From a virus: a stretch of 40,579 bases of DNA. The notes beneath the pieces are model-generated. The model saw only the letters and a program-made list of their open reading frames with translations, made no database searches and was not told where the DNA came from. The DNA lies in IMG/VR virus record IMGVR_UViG_3300027419_000014; one strand, given 5' to 3'. Positions 786-31,119 of the stretch are shown piece after piece (the stretch's first letter is position 1; each line of letters starts with the position of its first letter). The position numbers and the translations under genes were made by a program.

Positions 786-1331
786 TCAATCTTCAAAATT
801 TATGCTATCCTCAACAACTTCCATAGCTTTATCAATTGGAACATACTCCATTTTATCCGTAATTACATGAGATACCACGGTCTGACATTTAAAAATTAAA
901 CCTTTTTGTAATATCTCAAGACCACCTTTAAAAGTAAATTCTGGGGTCTCATCGTGATTTAAAACATTTGCTATTCCTGACCAGATTAAATAATCTGGTG
1001 AAACGATTAATTCTCTTGCAGTTTCATATGGTATAAATAAAGCTGCATCGTTTGATCTTTCATGTTTTGCAGCTGTAAAAAAGTTCATGTAATAATCAAA
1101 ATCTGTTAAAGTCCCGCTTCTTACGCTTCCATTCGGCTGTCGTTTTGTTACTCTATAAGTTGATTGAATATAAGGATATTTAACCGGTTGCGCTACAGTA
1201 CCATATTTATAAATCGGGCAAGTAATATCTTGCGCAATTAAAGCAGTGTTTAACACCTTATTCATTTCATAATATTTTTCATTCAGTGTCATTTTCTGCG
1301 CCTGAAATTGGCATTTCATCACATGTCGCAA
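786..1331 (-). CDS. Hypothetical virion protein; possible tail completion/terminator protein by position
   Basis: 181-aa ORF directly upstream of the sheath gene. It overlaps the preceding ORF by 53 nt, so an internal Met (M14 or M23) may be the real start. No motif recognised. Confidence 0.3.
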   Translation of the reverse strand: MRHVMKCQFQAQKMTLNEKYYEMNKVLNTALIAQDITCPIYKYGTVAQPVKYPYIQSTYRVTKRQPNGSVRSGTLTDFDYYMNFFTAAKHERSNDAALFIPYETARELIVSPDYLIWSGIANVLNHDETPEFTFKGGLEILQKGLIFKCQTVVSHVITDKMEYVPIDKAMEVVEDSINFED

Positions 1332-1656
1332 TTACCGTATTATTACTATTTTCTTCAACAGGTGACCAATCTATAACCCTATAAACTTTATCTCCGTGAG
1401 TGATTGAATCTGGTTGGCCTACAGGAGCCGAAGGAATTACAATTGTTACCCCGCCCGTTACTATAATACCAGCCTTTTCAAGTCTTTGAATATCATTTGC
1501 CTGTAAAGCACCAACCGAAGCAGGACTAATTATATATACCGGCGTTACAACCGCTGAACCGTCACCCGCCGAATCGTCAAAAGTAGGATAATTTAGAGTT
1601 ACAGTTTCACTTGATATTCTGTTAGCCGTCAATCCCTGCATCCCCCTTGTTTTCAT
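1279..1656 (-). CDS. Putative head-tail adaptor / head-closure protein
   Basis: 125-aa ORF between the connector-like gene and the tail genes. Size and position are typical of neck proteins. Confidence 0.35.
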   Translation of the reverse strand: MKTRGMQGLTANRISSETVTLNYPTFDDSAGDGSAVVTPVYIISPASVGALQANDIQRLEKAGIIVTGGVTIVIPSAPVGQPDSITHGDKVYRVIDWSPVEENSNNTVIATCDEMPISGAENDTE

Positions 1657-1982: not shown

Positions 1983-3467
1983 CTATGCGTGTACATCAAA
2001 AACAAGATCAAAAACCTGACCCCGCTGTATAACCATCGGGCCGCCAAAAGTAAGGCTTGCCGCATAAGATGATCTTTGCTCACTTACTACACCTGTAGTT
2101 ACTCTAGGAGTAGCTGTCGCCATAGGAGAAAGAACACCTTTTAAACCTGTAGGTGCGCCGTGTACAACTGCAACAATGTGATTGTACTGCTGAGTACCCA
2201 GAGAGTTTATTCTTGCGTTGAGAAGACCTGAAGTTTTAATTTCAATGTCCCCAATAGTTCCACCGACTGCAAGTTTAAGAGCTTCGCCGAGAGTTCTGTT
2301 AAATGTTCCAGTAGAAAGATATTGAACCAATATCGCATAAAGTCCGGTAGGAACATAAAGAACAACTTTTTTACTAGTTGCTACGTTTGTTAGGGCAATC
2401 AGATTAAGAAGTCTGACAATATCCTGGTAAACATACATTGGGTTTGCTGCTGCTGACAAAGGAGCAATAAGAGCCGCATCATCTGCCGGTTTGTAATTGT
2501 AATTTTTAATCTGCTGTACAAGTTTAGTCGGATTTGAAGCCCAATCGGCAGCTGTAGCCAACGCCGGAGAAGCTGTTCCTGCTGTTCCCAGAGCAAGCAT
2601 AATTGAAGGTGAAAGTAACCCATATTGTCCGGTCTCGCCGTCAAAAGCAGATGCGCCTGTACCGTCTATAAATATTCTTTCAACTGCCTGCATAATCTGC
2701 TGATCAATAACGCTGAAAAGCTGATTCTGGAGAATAAACCCCGCCAGAGCTGGAGCGATTGAGCGAGCATAACCCATAAGAGCCTGCTGCTGTTCGTTTT
2801 CAATTATAAAGCCCTGTGATTCTGTATGAGCTGTTTTAAACTCATTGATAAGAGAGATTTGAGCCAGATTGTTAGAATATGTTCTGTCGTCTCCATAAGG
2901 ATTAAGATCTCCAAGTCTTCCTTTAGATGAACCACTTGATTCTACACGGGGTATTCTGAATCTTGAAATCGCCCCAGCGGAAGCCGCTACTTCTGCGGAA
3001 AGCTGAACCGCGTCCCCTTCCTCAATAAAAGACTGAGTAAAAGTCAATTGTTCAAAAAGCTGTTCTGCAAGTTGCTGAAGTCCTGCAAATTGGTCATATC
3101 CGGGATTTCCAAAATATGCATTAAGTGCAGTGGCTTCGGCAGTCTCAAAAGAGCATCCGGCCTTCATTGCATTTTGTGCGATTGTATTAAGCTTGCCACG
3201 GAGTCCATGTGCCATATCAACAATATGGTCAATTGAAGCACCGCCAAATTTTATTTGTAAACTTTTAAATGCGTCATTGTGACCTTTAGAAACTGGATTC
3301 GCCACATCAAGAAGAGCATTATGCAATGCAATATATTCTTTACGTCCTGCAATTTCATTAATAGGAGCAAGCCCTTCTGTTCTTTTTGAATCCGCATAAC
3401 CATTTCTGATTACAAGCCAATTCCTGAAATTCTGTTCTGCTATTTGCTGAGATGTTATTTTTTTCAT
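1983..3467 (-). CDS. Major capsid protein (probable)
   Basis: 494 aa and one of the largest ORFs of the head module. It follows the scaffold and decoration-like genes and precedes the connector genes. No motif verified by eye. Confidence 0.55.
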   Translation of the reverse strand: MKKITSQQIAEQNFRNWLVIRNGYADSKRTEGLAPINEIAGRKEYIALHNALLDVANPVSKGHNDAFKSLQIKFGGASIDHIVDMAHGLRGKLNTIAQNAMKAGCSFETAEATALNAYFGNPGYDQFAGLQQLAEQLFEQLTFTQSFIEEGDAVQLSAEVAASAGAISRFRIPRVESSGSSKGRLGDLNPYGDDRTYSNNLAQISLINEFKTAHTESQGFIIENEQQQALMGYARSIAPALAGFILQNQLFSVIDQQIMQAVERIFIDGTGASAFDGETGQYGLLSPSIMLALGTAGTASPALATAADWASNPTKLVQQIKNYNYKPADDAALIAPLSAAANPMYVYQDIVRLLNLIALTNVATSKKVVLYVPTGLYAILVQYLSTGTFNRTLGEALKLAVGGTIGDIEIKTSGLLNARINSLGTQQYNHIVAVVHGAPTGLKGVLSPMATATPRVTTGVVSEQRSSYAASLTFGGPMVIQRGQVFDLVFDVHA

Positions 3468-4019: not shown

Positions 4020-5212
4020 TAGAACACCTCCGAAGTATGTGAATTAGCCGCACTATCCGGCTTTTTTTCTACCATTTCCGCATATTTCGCATTGACCGCT
4101 ATAATACGGGCTGCCGGGTCAATTTCCTTAATCCCTAGCATATTTGCAAGAGATACAAAAGAAGGTGTTTTTGAACCGAAGTCGATATTAAGAGCAGTAC
4201 CTACAGCCGCTACAAGAGCCTGTGTTGGCTTGGCATTTTCAAGAGTAGTATCTTCTTTGCTATCCTTTGATTTTTTTTCTTTTCCCTCTTCCGCTTCTTC
4301 TTCTGGTGTTTCCTTACCTTCATAAGCTGCGTTTTCAGCTTCTTTTTTCTTCATTTCTTCATTTTCATCTTCAAGGTTTTTTACCTTGTTCTTCAGTTCT
4401 TTAATCTCGTCTTCTGCATTGCGAGCAGCCAGTTCTTCCTTGACCGCATTTTTAACGATTGCGGCTATTTGTTCGGGGGTCATTTCTGCCATACGTTTTT
4501 CCTCACTTTTAGAATCCTCACTTTTATAAATTCCGTCAGTATTTACTACTACGGCGTTATTCACTGGAACAGTATTTCTAACTTGTATTTTATTTTCGGG
4601 ATCTCTTACGCTTTGTGTTAATGCTATATGAGTTACTTTTAAATCATGCGCAATCGCGTTGTATTCCTGTCCGTCTGGAGTTACACCTGATTTTACTTCA
4701 GCTATAAAATCAATAAAAGCACTTGCTCCAAATTTATCTTTATCAATATTTTCATTGATATAATCAACTTGATCTTTTCCTTTAACAACTCCGTCAAGTA
4801 TAGCCGCCTTCTTAATTTCATCATAATGAACTGTAGAAGCCCATCCGTCTATTTTTTTATTTTTTTCATTCGTTGTTGCGCCATGTCCAACTCCTACCAC
4901 AAAAGGAGCGAGTTCAAGATTTTTAAGAAATTTTTTAGATGAAACTTCCTCTGGAGGATAATAAAGATGAATATTTTTACCGGCAAGTCGCGGGTCATTT
5001 ATTTTAAGTTCTTCGGGAGTATAATTTAAAACCCCAACATGTAAAGCTGGTACGGTAATTTTTAATGATGCTATTCTTTCGGAAGTATCATTTTTAACAC
5101 TATACCGAATTTCTGGAATTCGTTTTGTATACTTTCGTTTAACCGGTTTTGGGGCAGGTTTATTTAAAATTCGTCTGATTATTGATTGTATATTCATAGT
5201 TTTTAATCTCAA
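4019..5212 (-). CDS. Scaffolding protein, possibly a protease-scaffold fusion
   Basis: 397 aa with a globular N-terminal half and a highly charged Glu/Lys coiled-coil C-terminal half (EEKRMAEMTPEQIAAIVKNAVKEELAARNAEDEIKELKNKVKNLEDENEEMKKKEAE...). It sits between the Mu-F-like and capsid genes. Confidence 0.45.
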   Translation of the reverse strand: MRLKTMNIQSIIRRILNKPAPKPVKRKYTKRIPEIRYSVKNDTSERIASLKITVPALHVGVLNYTPEELKINDPRLAGKNIHLYYPPEEVSSKKFLKNLELAPFVVGVGHGATTNEKNKKIDGWASTVHYDEIKKAAILDGVVKGKDQVDYINENIDKDKFGASAFIDFIAEVKSGVTPDGQEYNAIAHDLKVTHIALTQSVRDPENKIQVRNTVPVNNAVVVNTDGIYKSEDSKSEEKRMAEMTPEQIAAIVKNAVKEELAARNAEDEIKELKNKVKNLEDENEEMKKKEAENAAYEGKETPEEEAEEGKEKKSKDSKEDTTLENAKPTQALVAAVGTALNIDFGSKTPSFVSLANMLGIKEIDPAARIIAVNAKYAEMVEKKPDSAANSHTSEVF

Positions 5213-11204: not shown

Positions 11205-12575
11205 TTATATACCTTCGTTATAACTATTTAAAGTTGTTGAAAAATGATGTTTTGCATAGCATTTTTCTGATCCAGTATAATTATCCCCAGAAAAATGTTC
11301 TCTTTGGAAAAACCACGACGGGAATATTTTAACATTCTGAGCTGTCTTTTTATACATCTCCCCTACATATTTATTACCGGTTTTTCTGAACGGTTCCATA
11401 TCTCCCGTAATACCGTCTTTTTTTAAGCCGTCAATCAGTTCTTTAGCAAATTTAGAACCCTTTACAGCAGCCAAAAGAGGTTGAATAAATCCCGGTCTTG
11501 ATTTCTCATTTTCCCAAAATGAATATGAATCATATTGATCTGTAAATAATTCATTTATCGGTAATAGACAGGTAGTATCCGCATCCATAAAGACACCGCC
11601 ATATCTAAATAATATTTCATACTGTACCACGTCTTTAAGTCCATGCCACATTTTTTTAGTGTAATAATAATCAACAAGTTTCTGATTTTCCCATTTTTCA
11701 GCAAATATTTCTTTTTCTGTCCATAGCCTGTATAAAAAATCTGGATTTTTTTCTCTCCATGTCTGCATCCATTTTAAAGGGGCGGGATTATCTGAAACCC
11801 ATAATTGATGAATCTGTTTTGGAATTACAAATTTCTCATTATCAATAAATTTATAAGCTTCCCTATTAAGTCCGTTATGGCCTACAAGTGAGGGCTTATG
11901 GTCGTTATGATCTATCAGTGAGGGTATAGGGAATATCATCTGAAACTTATTTTTCATAACCCACAAAGAAATCCTTTCATCATCATGGCATTCTGTTAAT
12001 GTGTCATAAAATTCGAGCATGGATTCGATTTGATTAGTCGGCAAGCAAACTGCAACTCCCCCACGGTTACGGCCTTCCAGCTGATAACCTTGAATTTCAA
12101 ATTGTCTCATCTTCGCTGCGTCGTATTCAGGCCGGATAAAAAAGTTATACCCATACACCGGACGGCAATGTGATATTCTCTCAGACTCCATGTCTGTTAT
12201 AAACTGTTCAGCCCGTTCTTTAAACCGATGGCAGATGATAGCATCATCCTGGATAACAACGTGGAAATCCGATTTTGGGTCGTGCATCATCCATGCAGCT
12301 TTACAATTTTCTATCAGATTGTTTTTCTGATCGATTGAAAAAGGAACTTCTCCAAGTTTTTCTCGTAAATAAGGAAAGTTTTTTGATCGGGAAGGATGAG
12401 CCATAACGGAAATAGAAAGTTTAATTTTCGGTATTTTCGGAGAGTCTAATTCGATTATATCCCCTAAATCTAAATGCATTTTTATAATAGCATATGGATA
12501 TTTATTTTCAGGGATATAATCACCATATTTATATTCGTTAAAGTTTTTTTCTTTATTGTTCCACATTAAATTCAT
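11205..12575 (-). CDS. Two-domain glycosyltransferase (GT-A-like N-half plus DXD sugar-binding C-half)
   Basis: The N-half has ISVMAHPSR...VVIQDDAI. The C-half has IPKQIHQLWVSDNPAP...LFRYGGVFMDADT, which is typical of the Gly_transf_sug (OCH1/capsule type) DXD family. Confidence 0.6.
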   Translation of the reverse strand: MNLMWNNKEKNFNEYKYGDYIPENKYPYAIIKMHLDLGDIIELDSPKIPKIKLSISVMAHPSRSKNFPYLREKLGEVPFSIDQKNNLIENCKAAWMMHDPKSDFHVVIQDDAIICHRFKERAEQFITDMESERISHCRPVYGYNFFIRPEYDAAKMRQFEIQGYQLEGRNRGGVAVCLPTNQIESMLEFYDTLTECHDDERISLWVMKNKFQMIFPIPSLIDHNDHKPSLVGHNGLNREAYKFIDNEKFVIPKQIHQLWVSDNPAPLKWMQTWREKNPDFLYRLWTEKEIFAEKWENQKLVDYYYTKKMWHGLKDVVQYEILFRYGGVFMDADTTCLLPINELFTDQYDSYSFWENEKSRPGFIQPLLAAVKGSKFAKELIDGLKKDGITGDMEPFRKTGNKYVGEMYKKTAQNVKIFPSWFFQREHFSGDNYTGSEKCYAKHHFSTTLNSYNEGI

Positions 12576-17272: not shown

Positions 17273-18181
17273 CTATTTTGTCAGTTTATACTTTGCTGAA
17301 TATTCGTCATTATACTTATAATCTTCCCACCAGACAGAATTGAAAACAGAAGTTATATTTACCCACCGACTAAATCTTTTTTGTTCTTTTGTTGGTTCTT
17401 CATTAGTTTTAAAATTTCTGTATGGCTGGCAAAACGGTTCGCAGTATAATCCTTTAATTTTTTTGACTCTTTCCATTGCTTCTGGAACTTCTTTAACAAT
17501 CGTATAGACAAAATACCGTGACGGTCTGACATTTCTCCATCTTAAATTAGTTACTGCTTTTTGCAATGATTCAAATGAAAATTCGTTATCACAAGCCAAT
17601 CGAACTGGATGAAGCCATTTAACTTTAGACAATAGTTTTGCCATAGAATCATCAATTAATCTTGAATCCAGTCCTTGATTAAAATCTACCTTTATTTTTA
17701 ACTCAATTATCTTCTCAATCTGCTTAATCCCGTAGTCGCTTGCTAGTACGTTGTTGTCCATTAAAACCGCAGATTTGTGTTCGCCAATAAAATGATCAAT
17801 ACTTGAATAGGATTTTATAGTTCCCTCTTTTTCTGGCACTATACACCAACTGCATTTATTTGGGCACCCTCTAGTCAAGAATCCATAAGCGTGTTCGCAA
17901 TCATATAAAGAATAATCTGGAATCATATTGTCTATTTCTTGGGGCAATTTAGATTTTATATTATATCCAGTTCCTCCGATTATTGTTTCACCAAAACAAG
18001 TAAAATTTATATTTGTATCGTGAGTAAATGTAAATACCTTAGATTTATAAACATTGTTATACCAAGAATTTTCTTTAACAAATTCCACAGTATCACCAAA
18101 AGATTTATGATAAGCACTTATTTTCATAAGTGCAAGATTAGGGAAATTTTTATTGTCTACATCTATCAATCCTATTTTCAT
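17273..18181 (-). CDS. Radical SAM enzyme with an N-terminal Rossmann/B12-binding-like domain
   Basis: LTRGCPNKCSWCIVPEKEG carries the CxxxCxxC [4Fe-4S]/SAM motif at about residue 105. The N-terminus MKIGLIDVDNKNFPNLALMKISAYHKSFGDTVEFV resembles the N-domain of class B radical SAM enzymes. Confidence 0.7.
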   Translation of the reverse strand: MKIGLIDVDNKNFPNLALMKISAYHKSFGDTVEFVKENSWYNNVYKSKVFTFTHDTNINFTCFGETIIGGTGYNIKSKLPQEIDNMIPDYSLYDCEHAYGFLTRGCPNKCSWCIVPEKEGTIKSYSSIDHFIGEHKSAVLMDNNVLASDYGIKQIEKIIELKIKVDFNQGLDSRLIDDSMAKLLSKVKWLHPVRLACDNEFSFESLQKAVTNLRWRNVRPSRYFVYTIVKEVPEAMERVKKIKGLYCEPFCQPYRNFKTNEEPTKEQKRFSRWVNITSVFNSVWWEDYKYNDEYSAKYKLTK

Positions 18182-18792: not shown

Positions 18793-18833
18793 AATATATT
18801 TTTATTATCGGAATAAGTCAAACATTTATTTAC
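18793..18833 (-). promoter_or_regulatory. Conserved promoter box, copy 1
   Basis: On the minus strand: GTAAATAAATGTTTGACTT, with TTGACT as the -35, a 17-nt spacer, then TATATT. The 19-nt core AAGTCAAACATTTATTTAC (plus strand) is identical at 21243 and 28535. Confidence 0.55.
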
Positions 18834-20139: not shown

Positions 20140-20258
20140 TTTTTACCACAACTATAACAAACATTACCTTTCACATAAAACGAATTTCCGCATTTCGGGC
20201 ATTTGCATTCTTCGCCTTTTTTTACATCTTTGTAATTTAGTGTTTTATCATAACTCAT
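20136..20258 (-). CDS. Zinc-ribbon micro-protein (40 aa)
   Basis: MSYDKTLNYKDVKKGEECKCPKCGNSFYVKGNVCYSCGKK has two CxxC pairs. An ATGA overlap links it to the HTH gene. Confidence 0.35.
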   Translation of the reverse strand: MSYDKTLNYKDVKKGEECKCPKCGNSFYVKGNVCYSCGKK

Positions 20259-20497
20259 CTTTTACCTACTCTTTCAATCCCTTTTAAATCATCCAGGATT
20301 AACTTGTAAATTCTTACCAGCTTATCAGGCTTTAATTTAATCCGGTCATTGAGAATGTAATTTACATACTGTTTGCTTTCGCCTATTATCTTAGCGTAAT
20401 AGCTTTGTTTTTTAGACAGCTCTGTTTTAACTTCTGTTTCCATTTCTTTTAAATCTTCAATGGAGTTTTGTATTGTGGTAAGATCAAATTCTTTCAA
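20255..20497 (-). CDS. Small HTH (XRE-like) DNA-binding protein, TTG start
   Basis: 80 aa. KKQSYYAKIIGESKQYVNYILND resembles a helix-turn-helix. The start is a TTG codon 7 nt after AAGGAG. Confidence 0.4.
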   Translation of the reverse strand: MKEFDLTTIQNSIEDLKEMETEVKTELSKKQSYYAKIIGESKQYVNYILNDRIKLKPDKLVRIYKLILDDLKGIERVGKR

Positions 20498-20511
20498 TTA
20501 TATCTCCTTAT

Positions 20512-20547
20512 TTTTCCTAAGTAAAAATTTAATTTTACTTAGGAAAA
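20512..20547. repeat. Perfect 15-bp inverted repeat with a 6-nt spacer
   Basis: TTTTCCTAAGTAAAA (20512..20526) and TTTTACTTAGGAAAA (20533..20547) are exact reverse complements. The repeat lies between the repeat-protein stop and the HTH gene RBS. Confidence 0.9.
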
Positions 20548-20552
20548 TAACA

Positions 20553-20903
20553 TTATTTGATACCGCCATAGCCAGAGCCATCGCCAGAGCCATCGCCAGA
20601 GCCAGAGCCATCGCCATAGCCAGAGCCATAGCCAGAGCCATAGCCAGAGCCAGAGCCATCGCCAGAGCCATAGCCATAGCCAGAGCCAGAGCCAGAGCCA
20701 TCGCCATAGCCAGAGCCATAGCCAGAGCCATCGCCAGAGCCAGAGCCATCGCCAGAGCCATCGCCAGAGCCAGAGCCAGAGCCATCGCCATAGCCAGAGC
20801 CATAGCCAGAGCCAGAGCCATAGCCAGAGCCATCGCCATAGCCAGAGCCATCGCCATAGCCAGAGCCATCGCCATAGCCATAATTATTTTTTATTTCTTC
20901 CAT
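20553..20903 (-). CDS. (Ser/Asp/Tyr)-Gly dipeptide-repeat protein
   Basis: 116 aa: MEEIKNN, then 53 X-Gly dipeptides with X = S, D or Y only, then GIK. Its ATG overlaps the stop region of the upstream gene by 13 nt. It is the only one of the three open frames with non-repeat termini. Confidence 0.5.
   Translation of the reverse strand: MEEIKNNYGYGDGSGYGDGSGYGDGSGYGSGSGYGSGYGDGSGSGSGDGSGDGSGSGDGSGYGSGYGDGSGSGSGYGYGSGDGSGSGYGSGYGSGYGDGSGSGDGSGDGSGYGGIK
20565..20882. repeat. 53 tandem hexamers GCCA(GA/TC/TA)
   Basis: Read directly from the sequence. There are 318 nt of uninterrupted GCCAGA/GCCATC/GCCATA units. The array is a GC-rich island in an AT-rich genome and is open in several frames on both strands. 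Confidence 0.95.
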
Positions 20904-21193
20904 TCTGGTACAGCCTTTATTGATTTTTCAGCAGCCTTGCTAACTGTTAAAATCTCAATCGCTTGTAATAATTCAACTTCTTTTACAGGCATAGGAAATT
21001 TACAATTCAGAGGGTCTTTTGTTCCTTCTTCTGCAAGTTGGGATAATGAAGCTGCTCCTGACCAATACCATATTCTACGGGCATTAGTTAAAACAACTTC
21101 TTGACCTTTTTTACTTTTAAGATTTCCTGCAAAAACTCCGGCTGAATATGTTCTTACTATTACATATTTACCTGTCACTTTTTTTTCTGACAT
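20891..21193 (-). CDS. Conserved hypothetical phage protein
   Basis: 100 aa. YVIVRTYSAGVFAGNL...VVLTNARRIWYWSGAASLSQLAEEG is a motif I recognise from other phage genomes. Function unknown. It is the first gene after promoter box copy 2. Confidence 0.5.
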   Translation of the reverse strand: MSEKKVTGKYVIVRTYSAGVFAGNLKSKKGQEVVLTNARRIWYWSGAASLSQLAEEGTKDPLNCKFPMPVKEVELLQAIEILTVSKAAEKSIKAVPEWKK

Positions 21194-21220
21194 TTCACTT
21201 TCTCCTTTTTTATATTAAAC

Positions 21221-21261
21221 TATTTAATCATAACATATTTAAAAGTCAAACATTTATTTAC
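21221..21261 (-). promoter_or_regulatory. Conserved promoter box, copy 2
   Basis: On the minus strand: GTAAATAAATGTTTGACTT, a 17-nt spacer, then TAAATA. It precedes the AAGGAG RBS of ORF 20891..21193. Confidence 0.55.
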
Positions 21262-21277
21262 ATAAAACATAAAAAAA

Positions 21278-21628
21278 TTATTTATCTGAGCAATCTGTAA
21301 GGCATCCGGTTTCTGATATTATTTTATCTATAAGCTCATCACGCTCGACCGACATTGTAAAAATATTAAAATGTGAATTACACGGACTTGAGCAAGTAGA
21401 CTTCAAATTTAATTCATTATCAAGAATATAATCTCTTACCCATTTTCGGCCACGGTCTTTTTTATGCTTCTGCCAGATATATTGCATCACATGGTTTTCA
21501 GATTGTTTGCCTTGTCTTATACAGTGGGCTAACTGAGGAGTACCATATTTAACTATATGACCGCCGCACTTCTGGCAGATAAATCCATCACGGACAAATA
21601 TTTTATATCTGAACTCTTCAGTAATCAT
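21278..21628 (-). CDS. HNH endonuclease
   Basis: 116 aa containing FVRDGFICQKCGG...LAHCIRQG...NLKSTCSSPCNSH, which gives paired Cys plus His/Asn in an HNH arrangement. Confidence 0.55.
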   Translation of the reverse strand: MITEEFRYKIFVRDGFICQKCGGHIVKYGTPQLAHCIRQGKQSENHVMQYIWQKHKKDRGRKWVRDYILDNELNLKSTCSSPCNSHFNIFTMSVERDELIDKIISETGCLTDCSDK

Positions 21629-21984
21629 TTTAATAAATCCTGATCTTGATGTTTATTCCCAATTACGGATGAAATACTGCATTGGTATTTTCCTAAAATA
21701 CCATTTGCAATCCATGATGATTCAAGCCATTTAACAACAACATTAAAACTTTCATCTTTAATTTTGTCAGATGCAAGAATGGGATAAGTTTTTAATATAT
21801 CTCCTTCATAAATCTTTTTCCCGTTTTTATCGTAAAATCCAGTAAATTGTTCGGATTTGTTCCAGTCAAAAACATAACACCCAACTTTTCCATTAAGATA
21901 ATATAATCCGTTTATAAAATAAACAAAATTATTTATATCTTTTATATAATATCTAAATTCTTTCTCTCTCATTTCAGAGTTCAT
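21625..21984 (-). CDS. YopX-family protein
   Basis: 119 aa. FRYYIKD...GLYYLNG...TGFYDKNGKKIYEGDIL matches the YopX signature. Confidence 0.55.
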   Translation of the reverse strand: MNSEMREKEFRYYIKDINNFVYFINGLYYLNGKVGCYVFDWNKSEQFTGFYDKNGKKIYEGDILKTYPILASDKIKDESFNVVVKWLESSWIANGILGKYQCSISSVIGNKHQDQDLLK

Positions 21985-22262
21985 TTTGTTTCTCTCTTAA
22001 TAAACATTTCACATACTCCATGCAATCCGCAAACACTTGCTTTTGGTTCTTCATATGCAAAACAAGTACATACATAAAACTTTAATGATTGACCACAATT
22101 GCAAGAAACATTTAATTTATCTTCTTTTTTATCATTGACATGACAGCAATGTTTGTATACTTCTAATTGATTAGCACATTGACAACAACATCCCCACCGA
22201 CCAAATTCTTCATCTAATAAATTGCAATCAGTTCCATTAACATAATAAAATTCTATTTTCAT
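21981..22262 (-). CDS. Cys-rich hypothetical protein
   Basis: 93 aa with more than 12 Cys (GRWGCCCQCANQ...CCHV...CNCGQ...CTC). Its ends overlap both neighbours by 4 nt. Confidence 0.35.
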   Translation of the reverse strand: MKIEFYYVNGTDCNLLDEEFGRWGCCCQCANQLEVYKHCCHVNDKKEDKLNVSCNCGQSLKFYVCTCFAYEEPKASVCGLHGVCEMFIKRETK

Positions 22263-22729
22263 TTTAACACTCTCCTCCGAAGAGCTTCATATTCTTTATT
22301 ATCAGTCGGTTTAATATATCCTTGTAAATCTAAAAATAAAAATCTTTCACAAAATTCTAAAAATTCTTTAGTTTCTTTTTTTGTGAATTTACCCATTGAA
22401 GGAATTAACGCATAATGCCCGTTATCAAGCTGCCATATCTTACCAGTGCCTTGATGCTTATCCGGTATCTGGTTATACTCCTCATACTCGTAGAACGCTG
22501 TACCGTTAATCTGGTGCAGATAGCGTGGCTTGAGAACAAAATCATGGACATACTGAAAATTAATTTCGCCCATAGCTTCACATATAGCCGGGAGGATTAT
22601 CCCCCGGTAAAGTCTATGCTGTGCGTATGATATCGAATCAGGTGCAAAATTTAAACATTTACCATTGCGTATTTCAGCACGACATATATTATTTTTTTCT
22701 TTTGAACATTCTGGGCATTCTGTTTTCAT
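22259..22729 (-). CDS. Hypothetical protein (replication module)
   Basis: 156 aa with an N-terminal CPEC...C motif. Tightly coupled to its neighbours. Confidence 0.4.
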   Translation of the reverse strand: MKTECPECSKEKNNICRAEIRNGKCLNFAPDSISYAQHRLYRGIILPAICEAMGEINFQYVHDFVLKPRYLHQINGTAFYEYEEYNQIPDKHQGTGKIWQLDNGHYALIPSMGKFTKKETKEFLEFCERFLFLDLQGYIKPTDNKEYEALRRRVLK

Positions 22730-23313
22730 ATCTTCATATCTCTCGTCATATCATCTATTATCTGCAATGGCTTATCTCTGTTATCAACAATAGCCTGGCA
22801 GACTTCTTTATCTCCAATAAATAAAGGTTGCTTTTCAAACTTTTTGCTACTATCGCCATACATTATCTTTATACTTTCATTTGGATCAATTATAACTTTG
22901 CAATAAGCTGAAATAAAATTATTACGGTGGATGCCCTCCAGAGATTGACCTTTGTTTTCGGTTGCTCTTTGGCAAAAATTTATCCATCCCCCCATTGATT
23001 GTAAAGCCTTGTATGCCCTATAATCACTTATAATTACATTATCAAGACTATTACCTGTTTTACAAATATTGTCATACCATGCGGAAGCGAGAGATTCCAT
23101 GTTTAATCTCGGGAAGAACTCTTCAAAGTCAGCCGGAGAAGGCGGTGTTTTGAATTTAGGATTAACCTTTATTATTATAGTCTTGAATACGTTATCAAGT
23201 TCTGATTCTTTAAATCTTTCCTGTAAATATAAATAAGTCATATCTTCAAGTTTTTCGGATGCGTAATCTCCATATATTTCTATAAGTGCGGCAATAAATT
23301 TTTTATGAGCCAT
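22726..23313 (-). CDS. Hypothetical protein (replication module)
   Basis: 195 aa, directly downstream of the replisome organizer. No Walker motif seen. Confidence 0.4.
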   Translation of the reverse strand: MAHKKFIAALIEIYGDYASEKLEDMTYLYLQERFKESELDNVFKTIIIKVNPKFKTPPSPADFEEFFPRLNMESLASAWYDNICKTGNSLDNVIISDYRAYKALQSMGGWINFCQRATENKGQSLEGIHRNNFISAYCKVIIDPNESIKIMYGDSSKKFEKQPLFIGDKEVCQAIVDNRDKPLQIIDDMTRDMKI

Positions 23314-23977
23314 ATTTATTATTTAACCTCTCTAAAGTTTTATTAAATTCAGGATTACTTTTTTTAACAGTTGAGATAATAGGCTTTTCTTTATCCCGCG
23401 CGTGCCATCCCCTGACTGCAGCTTGCCAGTCTTTCATTTTATTCTTACCGACCATCCAGCCCTTAGACTCGTAGAAATTCATAAAAGTATAAATATTTAT
23501 AGAGTACCGGTTTTCATTGCAGTATTCTGCTATTTCTTCATGTGTGGGGGGAGTAAAGCGTTTACGCTCGCCCTCTTCACTATACTTACCTAACCTATCC
23601 TTACCTAACCTATCCTTACCTGTGGCGTCCATTGGTATGACAACTGGTATACCAGAATTTAAACTCTTTAATTCTTCTTTGTAAATCTCTAAATATTTTG
23701 AAGGAGTGTATCTATCAGACCGGATTAAATTGTTTTCTTTCCAGTCCAGTATTACTAAAACTCTATCATCGAATACATGAACGAAGTGTTTAGCCTGTAA
23801 TATTTTGAGGTCATCCGGTTTACTTTCTGTCATTCTCATAATTGTGAAATGTTCACAGAATCCGTCATCATCCGCATTCATCCCAAGGTGAAAATATAAA
23901 TTCTGCGAACTTTGAGGCATCATTATAAATAAACTTGAATTGGTAATTGACTTTGAAAACATCCGCTTAGCCGCCAT
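23303..23977 (-). CDS. Phage replisome organizer / DnaD-like replication initiation protein
   Basis: MFSKSITNSSLFIMMPQSSQNLYFHLGMNADDDGFCE is typical of the replisome-organizer N-terminal domain. The C-terminal WQAAVRGW region is DnaD-like. The gene contains iteron-like repeats. Confidence 0.55.
   Translation of the reverse strand: MAAKRMFSKSITNSSLFIMMPQSSQNLYFHLGMNADDDGFCEHFTIMRMTESKPDDLKILQAKHFVHVFDDRVLVILDWKENNLIRSDRYTPSKYLEIYKEELKSLNSGIPVVIPMDATGKDRLGKDRLGKYSEEGERKRFTPPTHEEIAEYCNENRYSINIYTFMNFYESKGWMVGKNKMKDWQAAVRGWHARDKEKPIISTVKKSNPEFNKTLERLNNKYGS
23585..23621. repeat. 2.5 tandem copies of the 15-mer CTTACCTAACCTATC
   Basis: Read directly from the sequence: 23585..23599, 23600..23614, and a partial third copy to 23621. 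In the protein it encodes GKDRLGKDRLGK. Confidence 0.9.
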
Positions 23978-28512: not shown

Positions 28513-28553
28513 ACTATAATAATACTATCGGAAAAAGTCAAACATTTATTTAC
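28513..28553 (-). promoter_or_regulatory. Conserved promoter box, copy 3
   Basis: On the minus strand: GTAAATAAATGTTTGACTT, a 17-nt spacer, then TATAGT. It shares an extended match (TATCGGAAnAAGTCAAACATTTATTTACT, plus strand) with copy 1. Confidence 0.6.
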
Positions 28554-29578: not shown

Positions 29579-30250
29579 ATGAAAAAAATAATTTTAATTT
29601 GTTTAATTTCTATATATTTTATGGGATGCCAAGATAACGACGAACAAGCAATATGCTTTAACCCATATCTTTTAAAAGTTGTTTTTGAAGGAGACTCGCA
29701 ATCTGTTTTATTAAGCCAGGAAACCGATAAGATTATAGGTTATTATAATAATGGTATTGCTGGGAGTGGTACTGTTAATATAATCGATAGAATAAAAATA
29801 ATGAAAAACATGGAACCCGACATAATAGTCTTAACAATTGGAACAAATGATATGAAAGATATTGTAAATATTCCACAAGGTGAGACTATTACTGAATTTG
29901 AAGAAAATTATAAATACATAGTTAAAGAATATAAAAAAATTACAGATAAAATTATAGTTACCTCTATTCAGCCTGTAAATTCAGATTTATTTTTATCAAC
30001 TTACGGGCGAACATATCAAATTGTTAGAAATGATGTAATTATACAAATGAACGATATAATAAAATCAATAGCTTTTAATGAAAATATAATATACATTGAT
30101 GAATGGAAAGAATTGTATGATCCTACAAATAATATTTTAAAATATATATATGATAGTGGAGATGGATTACACTGGAATAATTCAGCATGTAGATTACATT
30201 TAAATAATGTAATTATTGCAATAAAAAATTATAAAAATACTGCTCCATAA
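29579..30250 (+). CDS. Secreted SGNH/GDSL-family hydrolase lipoprotein
   Basis: AAGGAGGG RBS. The signal peptide and lipobox are LICLISIYFMGC. SGNH block I is FEGDSQS, block II NNGIAGSG, block III GTND and block V DGLHWN. Confidence 0.7.
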   Translation: MKKIILICLISIYFMGCQDNDEQAICFNPYLLKVVFEGDSQSVLLSQETDKIIGYYNNGIAGSGTVNIIDRIKIMKNMEPDIIVLTIGTNDMKDIVNIPQGETITEFEENYKYIVKEYKKITDKIIVTSIQPVNSDLFLSTYGRTYQIVRNDVIIQMNDIIKSIAFNENIIYIDEWKELYDPTNNILKYIYDSGDGLHWNNSACRLHLNNVIIAIKNYKNTAP

Positions 30251-31119
30251 TCAAAAATAATTTTTACCGGCGGAGTATAATCAAAATTTATCCGACTTAT
30301 CCCGTTATACGTTCCACCAACGAGTATAATTGATTCCATCGAAACGATTAAATTATGATAATAAAGATATTTTCCTTTAATACTTAATTCTGTCCATGCG
30401 ATCCCATCAGTGGAATAAAATATATTATTGACTCCGCCATAATCATTACCCCCGCAAACAATCCACATTTTATTATTATATATTGCACCTCTTTGGCCAT
30501 ATCGCTCTGTAAACTGTCCGATACTTATTTGACTCCAATTAATCCCGTCTGAACTTCTCCAAACATCATTTACATAGGCCGTATTTGCTCCAGCTATGAG
30601 ATAAATATAATTATTATAAAATAACACTGATGAATATTGTCTTGCTCCGTAAGCACCAGCTCCTATATAAGTCCAATCAGACCCGTTTGAACTATTATAT
30701 ATATCACCATTATTTACTCCCCTATTTGGAGCTTCACATCCTCCGAATATCCATATTTTATTATTAAAAACAATTAAATTAATAGCATGCAAAGGATATA
30801 TAGATGGAAGTGATCCTGAATTTACCCATGTAATCCCATCACTTGAACTCCAAATTATTGGATCATTAGTAATCCCTGTACTTCCCCCAAAAATCCACAT
30901 CTTATCATCATATACACAACCCGAAATAAAAGATTTTGCTGGAAACGCTGTAGTCGCAGCTATTTGAGTCCAGTTAATTCCATCGGTTGAATTCCATACA
31001 TCATTATGACGTGAAGCATCACTACCACCAATAATCCAATGTAAGTTGTTAAAGTATAAATAACAAGCTCCTGTCCGGCTATAGAATTGATTAGATATTT
31101 GTTCAAATACTATACTCAT
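30229..31119 (-). CDS. Kelch-type beta-propeller protein (distal tail / receptor-binding candidate)
   Basis: 296 aa with five or six repeats of the pattern hhhhGG...NDVW.S.DG..W. Examples are WIIGGSD..DVWNSTDGINWTQ, WIFGGST..IIWSSSDGITWVN and YLIAGAN..DVWRSSDGINWSQ. It is the last gene of the fibre block. Confidence 0.6.
   Translation of the reverse strand: MSIVFEQISNQFYSRTGACYLYFNNLHWIIGGSDASRHNDVWNSTDGINWTQIAATTAFPAKSFISGCVYDDKMWIFGGSTGITNDPIIWSSSDGITWVNSGSLPSIYPLHAINLIVFNNKIWIFGGCEAPNRGVNNGDIYNSSNGSDWTYIGAGAYGARQYSSVLFYNNYIYLIAGANTAYVNDVWRSSDGINWSQISIGQFTERYGQRGAIYNNKMWIVCGGNDYGGVNNIFYSTDGIAWTELSIKGKYLYYHNLIVSMESIILVGGTYNGISRINFDYTPPVKIIFDYGAVFL

Follow-up and report, generated by a model that had tools for sequence, protein, structure and literature searches.

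Organization of the X-Gly locus

The locus lies on the minus strand of a 40,579-nucleotide stretch of viral DNA (IMG/VR record IMGVR_UViG_3300027419_000014), the whole of which is here called the window. Its centerpiece is a 318-nt array (20565..20882, minus strand) of 53 hexamers that follow each other without interruption and are of only three types, GCCAGA (26 units), GCCATA (15) and GCCATC (12). TRF detects periods of 12, 18 and 30 in it, the best being the 30-nt one (score 473, 89% matches), which amounts to a higher-order periodicity of 10 aa. The array stands out as an island with a GC content of 0.62 as against 0.346 for the window. It occupies most of a gene (20553..20903, minus strand) whose 116-aa product reads MEEIKNN-(X-G)53-GIK*, with four codons making up the entire repeat: Gly is GGC at all 53 positions, a single GGT following the array, and X is Ser (TCT) 26 times, Tyr (TAT) 15 times and Asp (GAT) 12 times. 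The array encodes a free-standing polypeptide that consists almost wholly of X-Gly and is predicted to be disordered.

The 53 units of three types, the codons, the termini of the ORF and its GC-rich setting, as listed in an original prediction made from the DNA alone, were each correct on rechecking. That prediction had further singled out the (S/D/Y)-Gly reading as the true coding frame; every frame is open across the array, and this is the sole one conserved in about 140 loci that use different codons for it. The product is also acidic, Tyr-studded and predicted to be disordered, as had been surmised: its net charge is -12, and the repeat is devoid of Lys and Arg. It has no signal peptide, and nothing beyond about seven residues precedes the repeat that might serve as a leader peptide. 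Searches with Pfam, NCBIfam, PHROGs and PADLOC assigned it to no family, the sole match being a sub-threshold, spurious and composition-driven one to TrAA12. No other X-Gly protein is encoded in the window.

Upstream of the polymer gene, and overlapping it by 13 nt (20891..20903), is a gene on the same strand (20891..21193) for a 100-aa protein with a net charge of +7 and its own strong Shine-Dalgarno (SD) sequence, AAGGAG. Previously noted as a conserved hypothetical, it can be identified as a member of the DUF6948 family (Pfam PF22253; E = 8e-33, 112.9 bits vs a cutoff of 27, covering profile positions 1-85 of 85), and the overlap too was confirmed. A promoter box (21221..21261, minus strand) lies ahead of it, with a -35 element TTGACT (21249..21244), a 17-nt spacer and a -10-like TAAATA (21226..21221). 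As had been proposed, this box is the second of three copies: a 19-nt core, GTAAATAAATGTTTGACTT, is found at three places, all on the minus strand (with 5' ends at 28553, 21261 and 18833), each copy presenting TTGACT, a 17-nt spacer and then TAnAnT, and the full 30-mer of the box is unique within the window. Going by this consensus, the box is likely to be the promoter of the cassette in the window.

Directly after the stop codon of the polymer gene, and before the SD sequence of the next gene, lies the perfect inverted repeat of the original prediction (20508..20547, minus strand), with 15-bp arms at 20512-20526 and 20533-20547. As RNA it would fold with -18 kcal/mol (z = -4.6). It is AT-rich and has no U-tract, and no canonical intrinsic terminator was called; nor does it behave as a repeated operator, its half-site being found nowhere else in the window. 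Each of the three closest relatives has a hairpin after the X-Gly gene, and at loci L001 and L167 it is equally strong and in the same position, with unrelated sequence. It is not a general feature of the cassette: across 119 loci the sequence following the X-Gly stop has the same folding energy as control windows. Beyond it is an 80-aa ORF with a TTG start (20255..20497, minus strand), which is context outside the conserved cassette and shows a weak match to HTH_3 (E = 7e-4, 20 bits, under the 23-bit Pfam cutoff).

The two-gene cassette across phages and prophages

An X-Gly ORF immediately follows the DUF6948 gene in 142 of 145 related loci from viral contigs, cultured phages and prophages of many phyla (73/74 viral, 5/5 GenBank-phage and 64/66 genome loci). 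By this conserved gene order, the X-Gly ORF is one half of a two-gene phage cassette, with DUF6948 first, that is conserved across phyla. Homologues of DUF6948 form 7196 clusters at 90% identity, and the protein remains 53-73% identical even between phages of widely separated phyla. At some loci there are two or three X-Gly genes in tandem, and at some Tyr is swapped for Phe or Trp. The cassette resides in an accessory-rich early region, with YqaJ exonuclease, SSB, RecT/Erf, RusA, Gp157 and YopX as recurring neighbors, of which RusA and YopX flank it within the window. No modifying-enzyme family recurs among these neighbors and none of them is conserved; the pair alone travels together. Cultured carriers include Pectobacterium phages Ymer and Koroua, Ralstonia phage NK-7, Iodobacter phage PhiPLPE and phages of Vibrio. 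A nucleotide search with the 4-kb region against 50,697 GenBank phages returned no match, and the phage in the window is thus without a close cultured relative.

The overlap between the two genes has an unusual construction. The ATG of the X-Gly gene (20903..20901) combines the last base of a Glu codon with the TG that opens the conserved Trp codon (20902..20900) at the C terminus of DUF6948, whose stop codon, TAA, follows at 20893..20891, and the X-Gly start occupies the same position, -13, in 109 of 140 loci. A purine (A or G) precedes TGG in 141 of 150 non-redundant DUF6948 genes. Where a Val codon precedes TGG it is GTA or GTG in 67 of 71 cases, vs 53% elsewhere (p = 5e-14); where the codon is for Ile it is ATA in 33 of 36, vs 20% elsewhere (p = 2e-19). 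An SD-like 4-mer is likewise enriched upstream of the X-Gly start (44% vs 17%; p = 6e-14). These biases argue that the start codon inside the DUF6948 Trp codon is, together with the SD-like motif, under selection. Since the start of the polymer is embedded in the last Trp codon of its partner, the two genes very likely share a transcript and are coupled in translation. The repeat lies in the -1 frame relative to DUF6948, and a programmed -1 frameshift fusing the two was therefore considered; it is rejected as the main route because the ATG/GTG start and the SD-like motif are themselves selected, and may at most yield a minor product.

Turnover of the array

Within a locus, nearly one codon is used for each residue of the polymer. 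Between loci the codons vary, Gly being GGC, GGG, GGT or GGA and Ser being TCT, TCC, AGC or TCG, and GC content spans 0.27 to 0.66. Because the S/Y/D and Gly residues persist while the codons change from locus to locus, selection operates on the protein. Array length, for its part, differs even between near-identical phages: the polymers of loci L011 and L012 have 31 and 67 aa, respectively, next to DUF6948 genes of identical DNA, and an independent 40.8-kb assembly, 99.8% identical to the window upstream, has 45 units vs the 53 seen here. Thus, the single-codon usage within loci, taken with these length differences, points to an array whose DNA rapidly expands, contracts and homogenizes while selection holds the dipeptide register and the S/Y/D alphabet. 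This bears out the earlier suggestion of DNA-level expansion or homogenization. The conserved amino acid pattern, the array-specific codons and the copy-number variation among close relatives mark it as a protein-coding tandem repeat subject to concerted evolution.

The same 40.8-kb contig departs from the window inside the array, both in unit number and in everything downstream, which puts a junction between near-identical contigs there, be it a true mosaic boundary or an assembly chimera. Short-read assemblies of close relatives frequently break at the array. The concern that the array might be a chimera or an assembly collapse was resolved in part: the array, itself far beyond chance, is not chimeric in kind, since comparable arrays are present in 142 of 145 related loci, and its exact unit number in the window remains uncertain.

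Other explanations for such a tract were also considered. A role for a G-quadruplex or another DNA structure is rejected, the choice of Gly codon being unconserved. For the same reason, the cis-acting DNA element entertained in the original prediction found no footing, with no DNA motif conserved between loci. Targeted hypervariation, by a diversity-generating retroelement or otherwise, does not fit either: variation in the X codons affects their first two positions (T/G and A/C) without being specific to adenine, and no reverse transcriptase showed up among the ORFs annotated near the array.

Structural predictions for DUF6948 and the polymer

DUF6948 is confidently modelled as a Sm/LSm-like barrel of five strands with two helices (AF2, pLDDT 90.6). 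A Foldseek search of the model against the PDB recovered only Sm/LSm-fold structures among the top 50 hits, at borderline E-values of about 1e-3 and TM scores of 0.5-0.75 (TMq 0.5-0.6). An extra helix is inserted between strands 3 and 4 of the model, and the N-terminal helix typical of Sm proteins is missing. The assignment is one of structural similarity: neither LSM nor Hfq Pfam models match DUF6948 at E <= 0.01, and a DUF6948 profile search against all PDB chain sequences gave nothing at E <= 1. Invariant residues include R14, R40, W44 and K65, within the motif ARRIWYW. One simple explanation for the pairing would be plain electrostatic attraction between a basic barrel and an acidic polymer. 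This holds in the window (+7 and -12) and fails as a family rule, since DUF6948 is not consistently basic: its net charge across loci has a median of +1 and is positive in only 59%.

The polymers are negatively charged in 99% of cases (median -9), with Lys and Arg nearly absent. Their composition is dominated by Gly (0.43-0.47) and Ser (0.17-0.22), with 10-13% Asp and very little Gln (0.003) or Asn (0.023). The median aromatic fraction is 0.14, falling below 0.05 in only one of 123 polymers, and the shortest polymers have just 22-31 aa. This acidic and aromatic composition is, as the comparison across loci indicates, a family-wide constraint.

Although the two proteins are normally encoded separately, we found a natural fusion, P0136, of DUF6948 with a 100-aa X-Gly tail, which argues for a functional linkage of DUF6948 and the polymer. 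In its model the barrel has a pLDDT of >90 and the tail, without secondary structure, one of 43-54, in line with the disorder predicted for the free-standing polymer. Such fusions are rare (1 among the 120 X-Gly matches listed), and no DUF6948 homologue exceeds 129 aa among the 120 matches listed. The X-Gly module is also fused, at either end, to DUF7666, DUF6745 and one unnamed domain, recognizable by KVYxIDD...FAHGETL. Its attachment to such unrelated domains suggests that the role of the repeat is more generic than serving one partner.

Possible functions of the cassette

We tentatively posit that the polymer serves a Sm-like protein that binds nucleic acid as its disordered, acidic and aromatic 'tail in trans', acting early in infection; we give this reading a probability of roughly 0.35, its mechanism being our inference. 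Here, the polymer would be a multivalent chain that acts in trans by binding the conserved Arg- and aromatic-rich surface of a nucleic-acid-binding and probably ring-forming DUF6948 barrel. Such binding might tune, compete with or cluster the binding of RNA or ssDNA by the barrel, during the early recombination and replication phase of the infection. If the two proteins do cooperate in this way, they would furnish a minimal, genetically tractable model for the tuning or clustering of a barrel that binds nucleic acid by a repeat that is disordered.

A possible, if rather less favored, alternative is that the polymer is a condensate scaffold or tag, wherein Tyr, Phe or Trp are the stickers, Gly and Ser the spacers, and Asp tunes solubility. 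It would form a membraneless compartment for recombination and replication, perhaps with oligomeric DUF6948, to which the X-Gly fusions are targeted. The composition fits the grammar of prion-like low-complexity domains, with aromatics almost always retained and Tyr replaceable by Phe or Trp. The predicted disorder of the tail, the loci with two or three tandem X-Gly genes and the occurrence of the module at either end of several unrelated small domains are also in keeping with it. However, the window has a single X-Gly protein and hence no obvious clients, some polymers are very short, and the strong negative charge with hardly any cations speaks against condensation of the polymer with itself, save in the presence of divalent ions or a basic partner. 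In a bolder version, a DUF6948 ring and the sticker-spacer polymer would together set up either a compartment without a membrane or a multivalent scaffold of nucleic acid where the phage recombines and replicates early on, with the X-Gly fusions to DUF7666, DUF6745 and the unnamed domain as portable targeting tags of a pan-phylum, previously unrecognized system. We regard this as doubtful; if true, it would represent a simple and widespread prokaryotic-virus counterpart of the eukaryotic low-complexity-domain condensates.

Unlikely, too, is an anti-defense role of the type favored by the original prediction, which read the locus as an acr-aca-like operon with a terminal HTH protein and a possible acidic nucleic-acid mimic. 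In such a scheme the mimic would block a host restriction or defense protein, and the HTH protein would repress the operon. The scheme has in its favor a precedent in Hfq, where an acidic disordered peptide mimics nucleic acid (PMC5606850). The acidic product, its probable early expression from its own promoter and the accessory-rich early region are likewise compatible with it, and the layout in the window, where an HTH-like ORF comes after a small unit transcribed early, does recall acr-aca operons. Yet a homologue of the HTH ORF occurs near the cassette in none of the 172 loci examined, the sole HTH-like cluster among the neighbors is confined to five of 165 loci, and no other neighbor is conserved, so that the operon as originally conceived finds no support. 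Moreover, no NCBIfam or PADLOC match links the cassette to known Acr/Aca or defense families. Anti-defense genes track specific host systems and anti-CRISPR genes are typically narrow in distribution, whereas the cassette is highly conserved across phyla, to an extent atypical for such genes in the case of DUF6948. Ocr, ArdA and other known mimics of DNA have a folded structure whose surface charge is patterned, unlike the disordered chain predicted for the polymer.

We consider it quite improbable that the polymer is a slippery decoy for host AAA+ proteases or unfoldases, i.e. a Gly-rich chain that stalls or titrates ClpXP, Lon or FtsH, with DUF6948 as its handle or chaperone. The extreme Gly content, the low complexity and the early-region location would fit, as would the attachment to several unrelated small proteins if the module were a cis-protective tag; the Gly-Ala repeat of EBNA1 and glycine-rich stop signals offer an analogy. 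However, such a decoy leaves unexplained the strict S/Y/D alphabet, the aromatics and the obligate pairing with DUF6948. More improbable still is a substrate for post-translational modification by a radical SAM enzyme, glycosyltransferase or kinase, akin to a RiPP precursor or to glycosylated Ser-Asp repeats. The chain is certainly rich in Ser and Tyr, and the window does encode both a radical SAM protein (17273..18181) and a glucosyltransferase-like protein (11205..12575), from which this idea had originally been drawn; but a radical SAM homologue is near the cassette in only one of 80 loci, no enzyme family recurs nearby, and no leader peptide extends beyond about seven residues. Finally, that there is no functional protein here but a recombination hotspot, structured DNA, an assembly artifact or a spurious ORF could be argued from the breaks in assemblies, the divergence of the near-identical contig within and beyond the array, the openness of all frames and the inconsistent annotation of the gene in GenBank, and is already disfavored, to the point of being scarcely credible, by a protein frame that is conserved where the DNA is not, a start codon and SD motif under selection, in-frame fusions to folded domains and the presence of the array in nearly all loci.

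Relationship to known systems

The closest parallel to the preferred reading, a chain acting in trans on a Sm-like barrel, is Hfq, in which the acidic C-terminal domain of the Escherichia coli protein attaches to the basic Sm core, acts as a nucleic-acid mimic and tunes RNA binding (PMC5606850). In the Acinetobacter version, which likewise has an acidic tip, GGFGGQ repeats are functionally required, and the number of repeats matters (PMC11617691). Both systems would thus couple a Sm-type barrel, predicted in the case of DUF6948, with a Gly-rich or acidic disordered chain. Unlike in Hfq, the chain of the cassette is phage-encoded and normally a separate polypeptide, very probably coupled via translation, seldom a fused one; it adheres to a strict two-residue register with an S/Y/D alphabet, and in sequence DUF6948 resembles neither Hfq nor LSM proteins. 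Among eukaryotic Sm proteins, SmB, SmD1, SmD3 and LSm4 bear Arg-Gly dipeptide-repeat tails, which are basic, methylated and read by Tudor domains. They share with the cassette the combination of a Sm fold, predicted here, with an X-Gly dipeptide repeat; in the cassette, however, X is Ser, Tyr or Asp, and the repeat is acidic and a separate protein.

Other resemblances concern the polymer by itself. The Gly-Ala repeat of EBNA1 from Epstein-Barr virus is similarly a virus-encoded Gly-X low-complexity tract with strongly biased codons, but it has a Gly/Ala alphabet, lies inside a large protein and acts on the eukaryotic proteasome and translation, whereas the phage polymer is free-standing. With the prion-like [G/S]Y[G/S] domain of FUS (reviewed in PMC9534829) the polymer shares a richness in Gly, Ser and Tyr, about 13% regularly spaced aromatics and predicted disorder; it differs in lacking Gln/Asn enrichment, in having Gly at every second position and 10-13% Asp, and in belonging to a prokaryotic virus. 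The glycine-rich peptides described by Iyer and Aravind in 2010 (PMC2938197) consist of collagen-like tripeptide repeats associated with dioxygenases and have no relation to the X-Gly polymer.

We found no paper on the DUF6948 and X-Gly pair, nor any that mentions DUF6948, and searches for DUF7666, DUF6745 and fibroin-like or glycine-rich/tyrosine phage proteins likewise yielded no relevant paper; the cassette is new to the literature searched, as a previously unrecognized gene pair. As DUF6948 is absent from that literature and the repeat gene is often overlooked by gene callers or put in the wrong frame, existing annotation effectively hides the pair. Nevertheless, a polypeptide consisting of little else than X-Gly, of the kind ordinarily dismissed as low-complexity noise, is here under protein-level selection in at least thousands of phage and prophage genomes of many phyla, and is tied to one highly conserved, predicted Sm-like partner through a start codon inside the last Trp codon of that partner. 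On the practical side, the array disrupts short-read assemblies.

The inconsistent annotation of the repeat gene in GenBank records extends to its name, the homologue in Ralstonia phage NK-7 being called a 'fibroin heavy chain-like protein'. The heavy chain of Bombyx mori fibroin does have alternating Gly-X with Ser and Tyr among X, but silk fibroin has Ala at most X positions and is a secreted protein of very large size that forms beta-sheet crystallites. The phage polymer is Ala-poor (only 17 of about 2480 X positions across loci), Asp-rich and without a signal peptide, and the resemblance is compositional rather than one of homology.

The X-Gly polymer gene and its partner

The 53 contiguous hexamers that fill 20565..20882 comprise GCCAGA (26), GCCATA (15) and GCCATC (12), a recount in exact agreement with the three-type array of the original prediction. 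On the minus strand they form the body of an ORF (20553..20903) reading MEEIKNN-(X-Gly)53-GIK*, in which X is Ser (TCT, 26), Tyr (TAT, 15) or Asp (GAT, 12) and all 53 Gly codons are GGC, followed by a single GGT 3' of the array; translation thus bears out the frame and codon usage proposed earlier. The array is also, as foreseen, a GC-rich island in an AT-rich genome (GC 0.62 against 0.346 for the window). Tandem Repeats Finder reports periods of 12, 18 and 30 nt, the best being 30 nt (score 473, 89% matches), so that a higher-order repeat of about 10 aa is superimposed on the hexamers.

Pfam, NCBIfam, PHROGs and PADLOC contain no family that includes this polymer gene. With the anticipated 13-nt overlap, it follows a 100-aa ORF (20891..21193, minus strand) whose product is a full-length DUF6948 protein (PF22253, E = 8e-33), a domain catalogued in Pfam for which no paper was found in the searchable literature. 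A homology search with DUF6948 yielded 7196 clusters at 90% identity, and we compared loci from 80 viral contigs, 5 GenBank phages and 80 genome contigs, with relatives 33-91% identical. Where at least 150 nt lie downstream of DUF6948, an X-Gly ORF follows immediately in 73 of 74 viral, 5 of 5 GenBank-phage and 64 of 66 genome loci (142/145 overall), a pairing that we regard as obligate. DUF6948 homologues occur in cultured phages of Ralstonia, Pectobacterium/Dickeya, Vibrio and Iodobacter and in a Chlorobiaceae phage; the five GenBank records with the downstream ORF are Ralstonia NK-7, Pectobacterium Pappous, Iodobacter PhiPLPE, Chlorobiaceae CV-1-33 and uncultured MW202898. Prophage-like carriers, on large contigs or complete chromosomes, include Acidobacteriota, a Manganitrophaceae MAG, Planctomycetota (Kuenenia), Bacteriovoracaceae, Alphaproteobacteria, Oscillospiraceae, Opitutales, Cyanobacteria and others, and some matches come from CPR and archaeal bins, into which phage contigs may have been mis-binned.

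In GenBank, the X-Gly ORF of PhiPLPE (EU876853, ~1170..1400) is unannotated, that of NK-7 (2153..2566) is named 'fibroin heavy chain-like protein', and that of CV-1-33 (MT192033, 2789..3034) was apparently called in the wrong frame as gene_25, whose annotated Ala-Met/Ala-Leu repeat (MAMAMAMAL...) represents an alternative frame shared with the window array. Tandem X-Gly genes, three after DUF6948 in locus L038 and two in L057/L060 and L013, each carry their own short N-terminal motif (e.g. METIIG...) and constitute amplification of the polymer at the level of the gene.

The embedded start codon

In 109 of 140 loci the polymer gene starts 13 nt before the end of the DUF6948 stop codon, its start codon being made up of the last base of the codon preceding a conserved C-terminal Trp and the TG of that TGG. 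Of 150 non-redundant genes, 141 have A or G as the base before this TGG. A pre-Trp Val is encoded by GTA or GTG in 67 of 71 cases, whereas these codons make up 53% of the Val codons at other positions of the same genes (p = 5e-14); for a pre-Trp Ile, ATA is used in 33 of 36 cases, compared with 20% at other positions (p = 2e-19). At a distance of 5-20 nt upstream of the start, 44% of genes have an SD-like 4-mer, compared with 17% of control windows (p = 6e-14). Together, these biases of start base, codon choice and SD-like motif support independent initiation of the polymer, coupled to the translation of DUF6948. The window's polymer gene has a weak internal SD (AAGG), and coupling therefore probably dominates there. 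Frameshifting as the main route to the polymer is argued against by the biased start base and the upstream SD-like motif.

Selection on the encoded polymer

The loci range in background GC from 0.27 to 0.66, and their codons differ by locus: the dominant Gly codon is GGC, GGG, GGT or GGA, Ser is encoded by TCT, TCC, AGC or TCG, Asp by GAT or GAC and Tyr by TAT or TAC. The great majority of X positions are Ser (898), Tyr (691) or Asp (554), followed by Asn (82), Phe (51), His (41) and Cys (37). Since the alternative frames encode products that vary with the locus (Ala-Met/Leu, Pro-Gly-Thr-Gly, Arg-Leu and others), the S/Y/D-Gly frame alone is conserved, and comparison across related phages upholds it as the coding frame. 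The codons of these common X residues are all one mutation away from Tyr TAY. Ala, though one step from both Ser and Asp, is rare at X (17), Lys and Arg are nearly absent from the polymers and Glu is rare; we argue that the rarity of Ala and the near-absence of Lys and Arg reflect selection on residue identity.

Within each locus nearly one codon is used per residue, and array length varies between close relatives, being 31 aa in L011 and 67 aa in L012 despite identical DUF6948 DNA. The DNA-level expansion or homogenisation invoked originally was therefore the right reading, but the process is held in check by strong purifying selection for the polymer that the array encodes. An independent assembly, L172 (ENA ERZ27247097, a 40,832-bp contig), is 99.8% identical to window 23693..20613; its array has 45 units against the window's 53 and ends in (Ser-Gly)7-Cys, and the sequence downstream is unrelated to the window, the next 346 nt being absent from it and encoding a Cys-rich ORF. 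This divergence within the array is either a mosaic recombination junction or an assembly chimera. The independent short-read assemblies L168, L169, L170 and L171, which come from close relatives and carry P0001, all break off at most a few bases from the DUF6948 stop, where the array starts. The array is thus an assembly breaker, unit counts in metagenomic contigs are unreliable, and the window's exact number of 53 is provisional.

A predicted Sm-like barrel and a chain predicted to be disordered

AlphaFold2, with a 45-sequence alignment, models DUF6948 as five strands and two helices (pLDDT 90.6). The top 50 Foldseek matches in the PDB are all Sm/LSm-fold proteins (E ~1e-3; TM 0.5-0.6 query-normalised, up to 0.75 target-normalised), including spliceosomal Sm, Lsm1-7/2-8, archaeal SmAP and chain C of the NatC complex, which we take to be its Sm-like subunit Naa38. 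Searched against viral models, it matches best to other members of its own family and to uncharacterised phage proteins; two weaker matches are labelled Sm-like. As no sequence-level link to LSM/Hfq in Pfam or to any solved structure was found, we call the modelled fold Sm-like and claim no superfamily membership. Invariant residues include R14, R40, W44 and K65, within the motif ARRIWYW. The protein of the window is basic (+7, pI 9.6); the family median is +1, so that it is not consistently basic.

The 123 complete polymers are 22-163 aa long (median 86), carry a net negative charge in 99% of cases (median -9) and have a median aromatic fraction of 0.14, with Phe or Trp replacing Tyr in some loci. 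A homology search with the repeat protein recovered X-Gly stretches joined to DUF6948 in P0136 (203 aa), to either end of DUF7666, to DUF6745 and, at the C-terminus of the stretch, to an unnamed domain of ~80 aa (...KVYxIDDxPT...AKG...FAHGETL...) with no Pfam match (P0121, P0122, P0167); this last fusion stands right after DUF6948 in six loci, such as L160 and L130. P0136 offers a classical fusion-based indication of functional linkage between DUF6948 and the polymer. In its AlphaFold2 model the barrel has pLDDT >90, and the tail, at 43-54, is devoid of secondary structure, consistent with disorder. The acidic, Tyr-studded chain once envisaged for the window thus recurs across loci, its disorder being a prediction.

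Genomic context of the pair

The HTH ORF next after the polymer gene, like the window's other cassette neighbours, has no homologue near the cassette in the other loci examined, and the commonest neighbour families each occur in at most 14 of 165 loci. These are recombination/replication genes (YqaJ-type exonuclease, SSB, ATPase, RusA, Erf, RecT, Gp157, YopX, methyltransferase). With no other gene conserved around it, the pair behaves as a mobile cassette inside the early recombination/replication module.

The promoter box predicted for the window is present in three minus-strand copies (28513..28553, 21221..21261 and 18793..18833), with the 19-nt core GTAAATAAATGTTTGACTT and the arrangement TTGACT, 17 nt, TAnAnT. 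Each of the three probably heads an early or middle transcription unit of its own, which for the copy at 21221..21261 probably begins at DUF6948; the third copy lies just downstream of a RusA-like gene. The expected perfect 15-bp inverted repeat has its arms at 20512-20526 and 20533-20547, in a hairpin (20508..20547) of -18 kcal/mol as RNA (z = -4.6) that was not called as a canonical terminator. Long perfect hairpins also stand 3' of the polymer gene in L001 (~4520..4562; -25.3 kcal/mol, z = -7.4) and L167 (~2969..3006; -16.7, z = -6.1), which with the window form the three closest relatives; their sequences are unrelated, so that position is conserved rather than sequence. Folding energy after the polymer gene shows no enrichment across all loci, and we read the hairpin as a clade-specific RNA 3'-end or processing structure rather than an operator.

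Possible roles of the polymer

We propose, with a probability of about 0.35, that the polymer works with the Sm-like barrel as a disordered, acidic and aromatic partner, which would modulate or cluster nucleic-acid binding by the barrel. The nearest precedents come from eukaryotic Sm proteins, which bear Arg-Gly tails, and from Hfq. In Hfq, the acidic C-terminal domain acts as a nucleic-acid mimic that binds the basic Sm core (PMC5606850), and the number of GGFGGQ repeats in Acinetobacter Hfq matters for function (PMC11617691).

A more doubtful alternative casts the polymer as a condensate scaffold or tag. Action as an anti-defence nucleic-acid mimic is unlikely; the TTG-start HTH ORF (20255..20497, minus strand) is indeed present, with a weak, sub-threshold HTH_3 match, but it is only a local neighbour of the cassette, and the acr-aca-like operon first suggested therefore falls away. 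We consider it improbable that the polymer is a slippery decoy for AAA+ proteases, and still more so that it is a PTM substrate. The lack of any protein function is the least credible, given the conserved reading frame. The remaining probability we leave to an explanation not yet imagined.

As far as our tools can tell, four features have gone undescribed: the obligate pairing, the start codon embedded in DUF6948, the conservation across phyla, at the protein level, of a three-letter dipeptide polymer, and its reuse as a fusion module. The defining features of the known systems considered were not found in the cassette, which may one day be classed as a split form of 'Sm-like protein with a low-complexity tail'.

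Other features of the phage genome

The window represents the essentially complete genome of a tailed phage, with most transcription from the minus strand; it has genes for large terminase, portal, protease and baseplate J, and others for a DnaD-like loader, exonuclease, Ant, RusA, YopX, a radical SAM protein and a protein resembling glucosyltransferases; no close DNA-level relative was found among GenBank phages. In the tail and baseplate region, a Kelch-repeat beta-propeller gene (30229..31119, minus strand) adjoins one of the few plus-strand genes, for a GDSL-family lipase or acylhydrolase (29579..30250). The window has no tRNA genes; its close relative L167 carries a tRNA-Gln (anticodon TTG) at 3132..3202, ~170 nt downstream of the X-Gly gene. 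Within the DnaD-like helicase-loader gene of the window (23303..23977), a 15-nt tandem repeat, CTATCCTTACCTAAC, present in 2.8 copies (96% matches) at 23580..23621, could be an iteron or replication-origin element.
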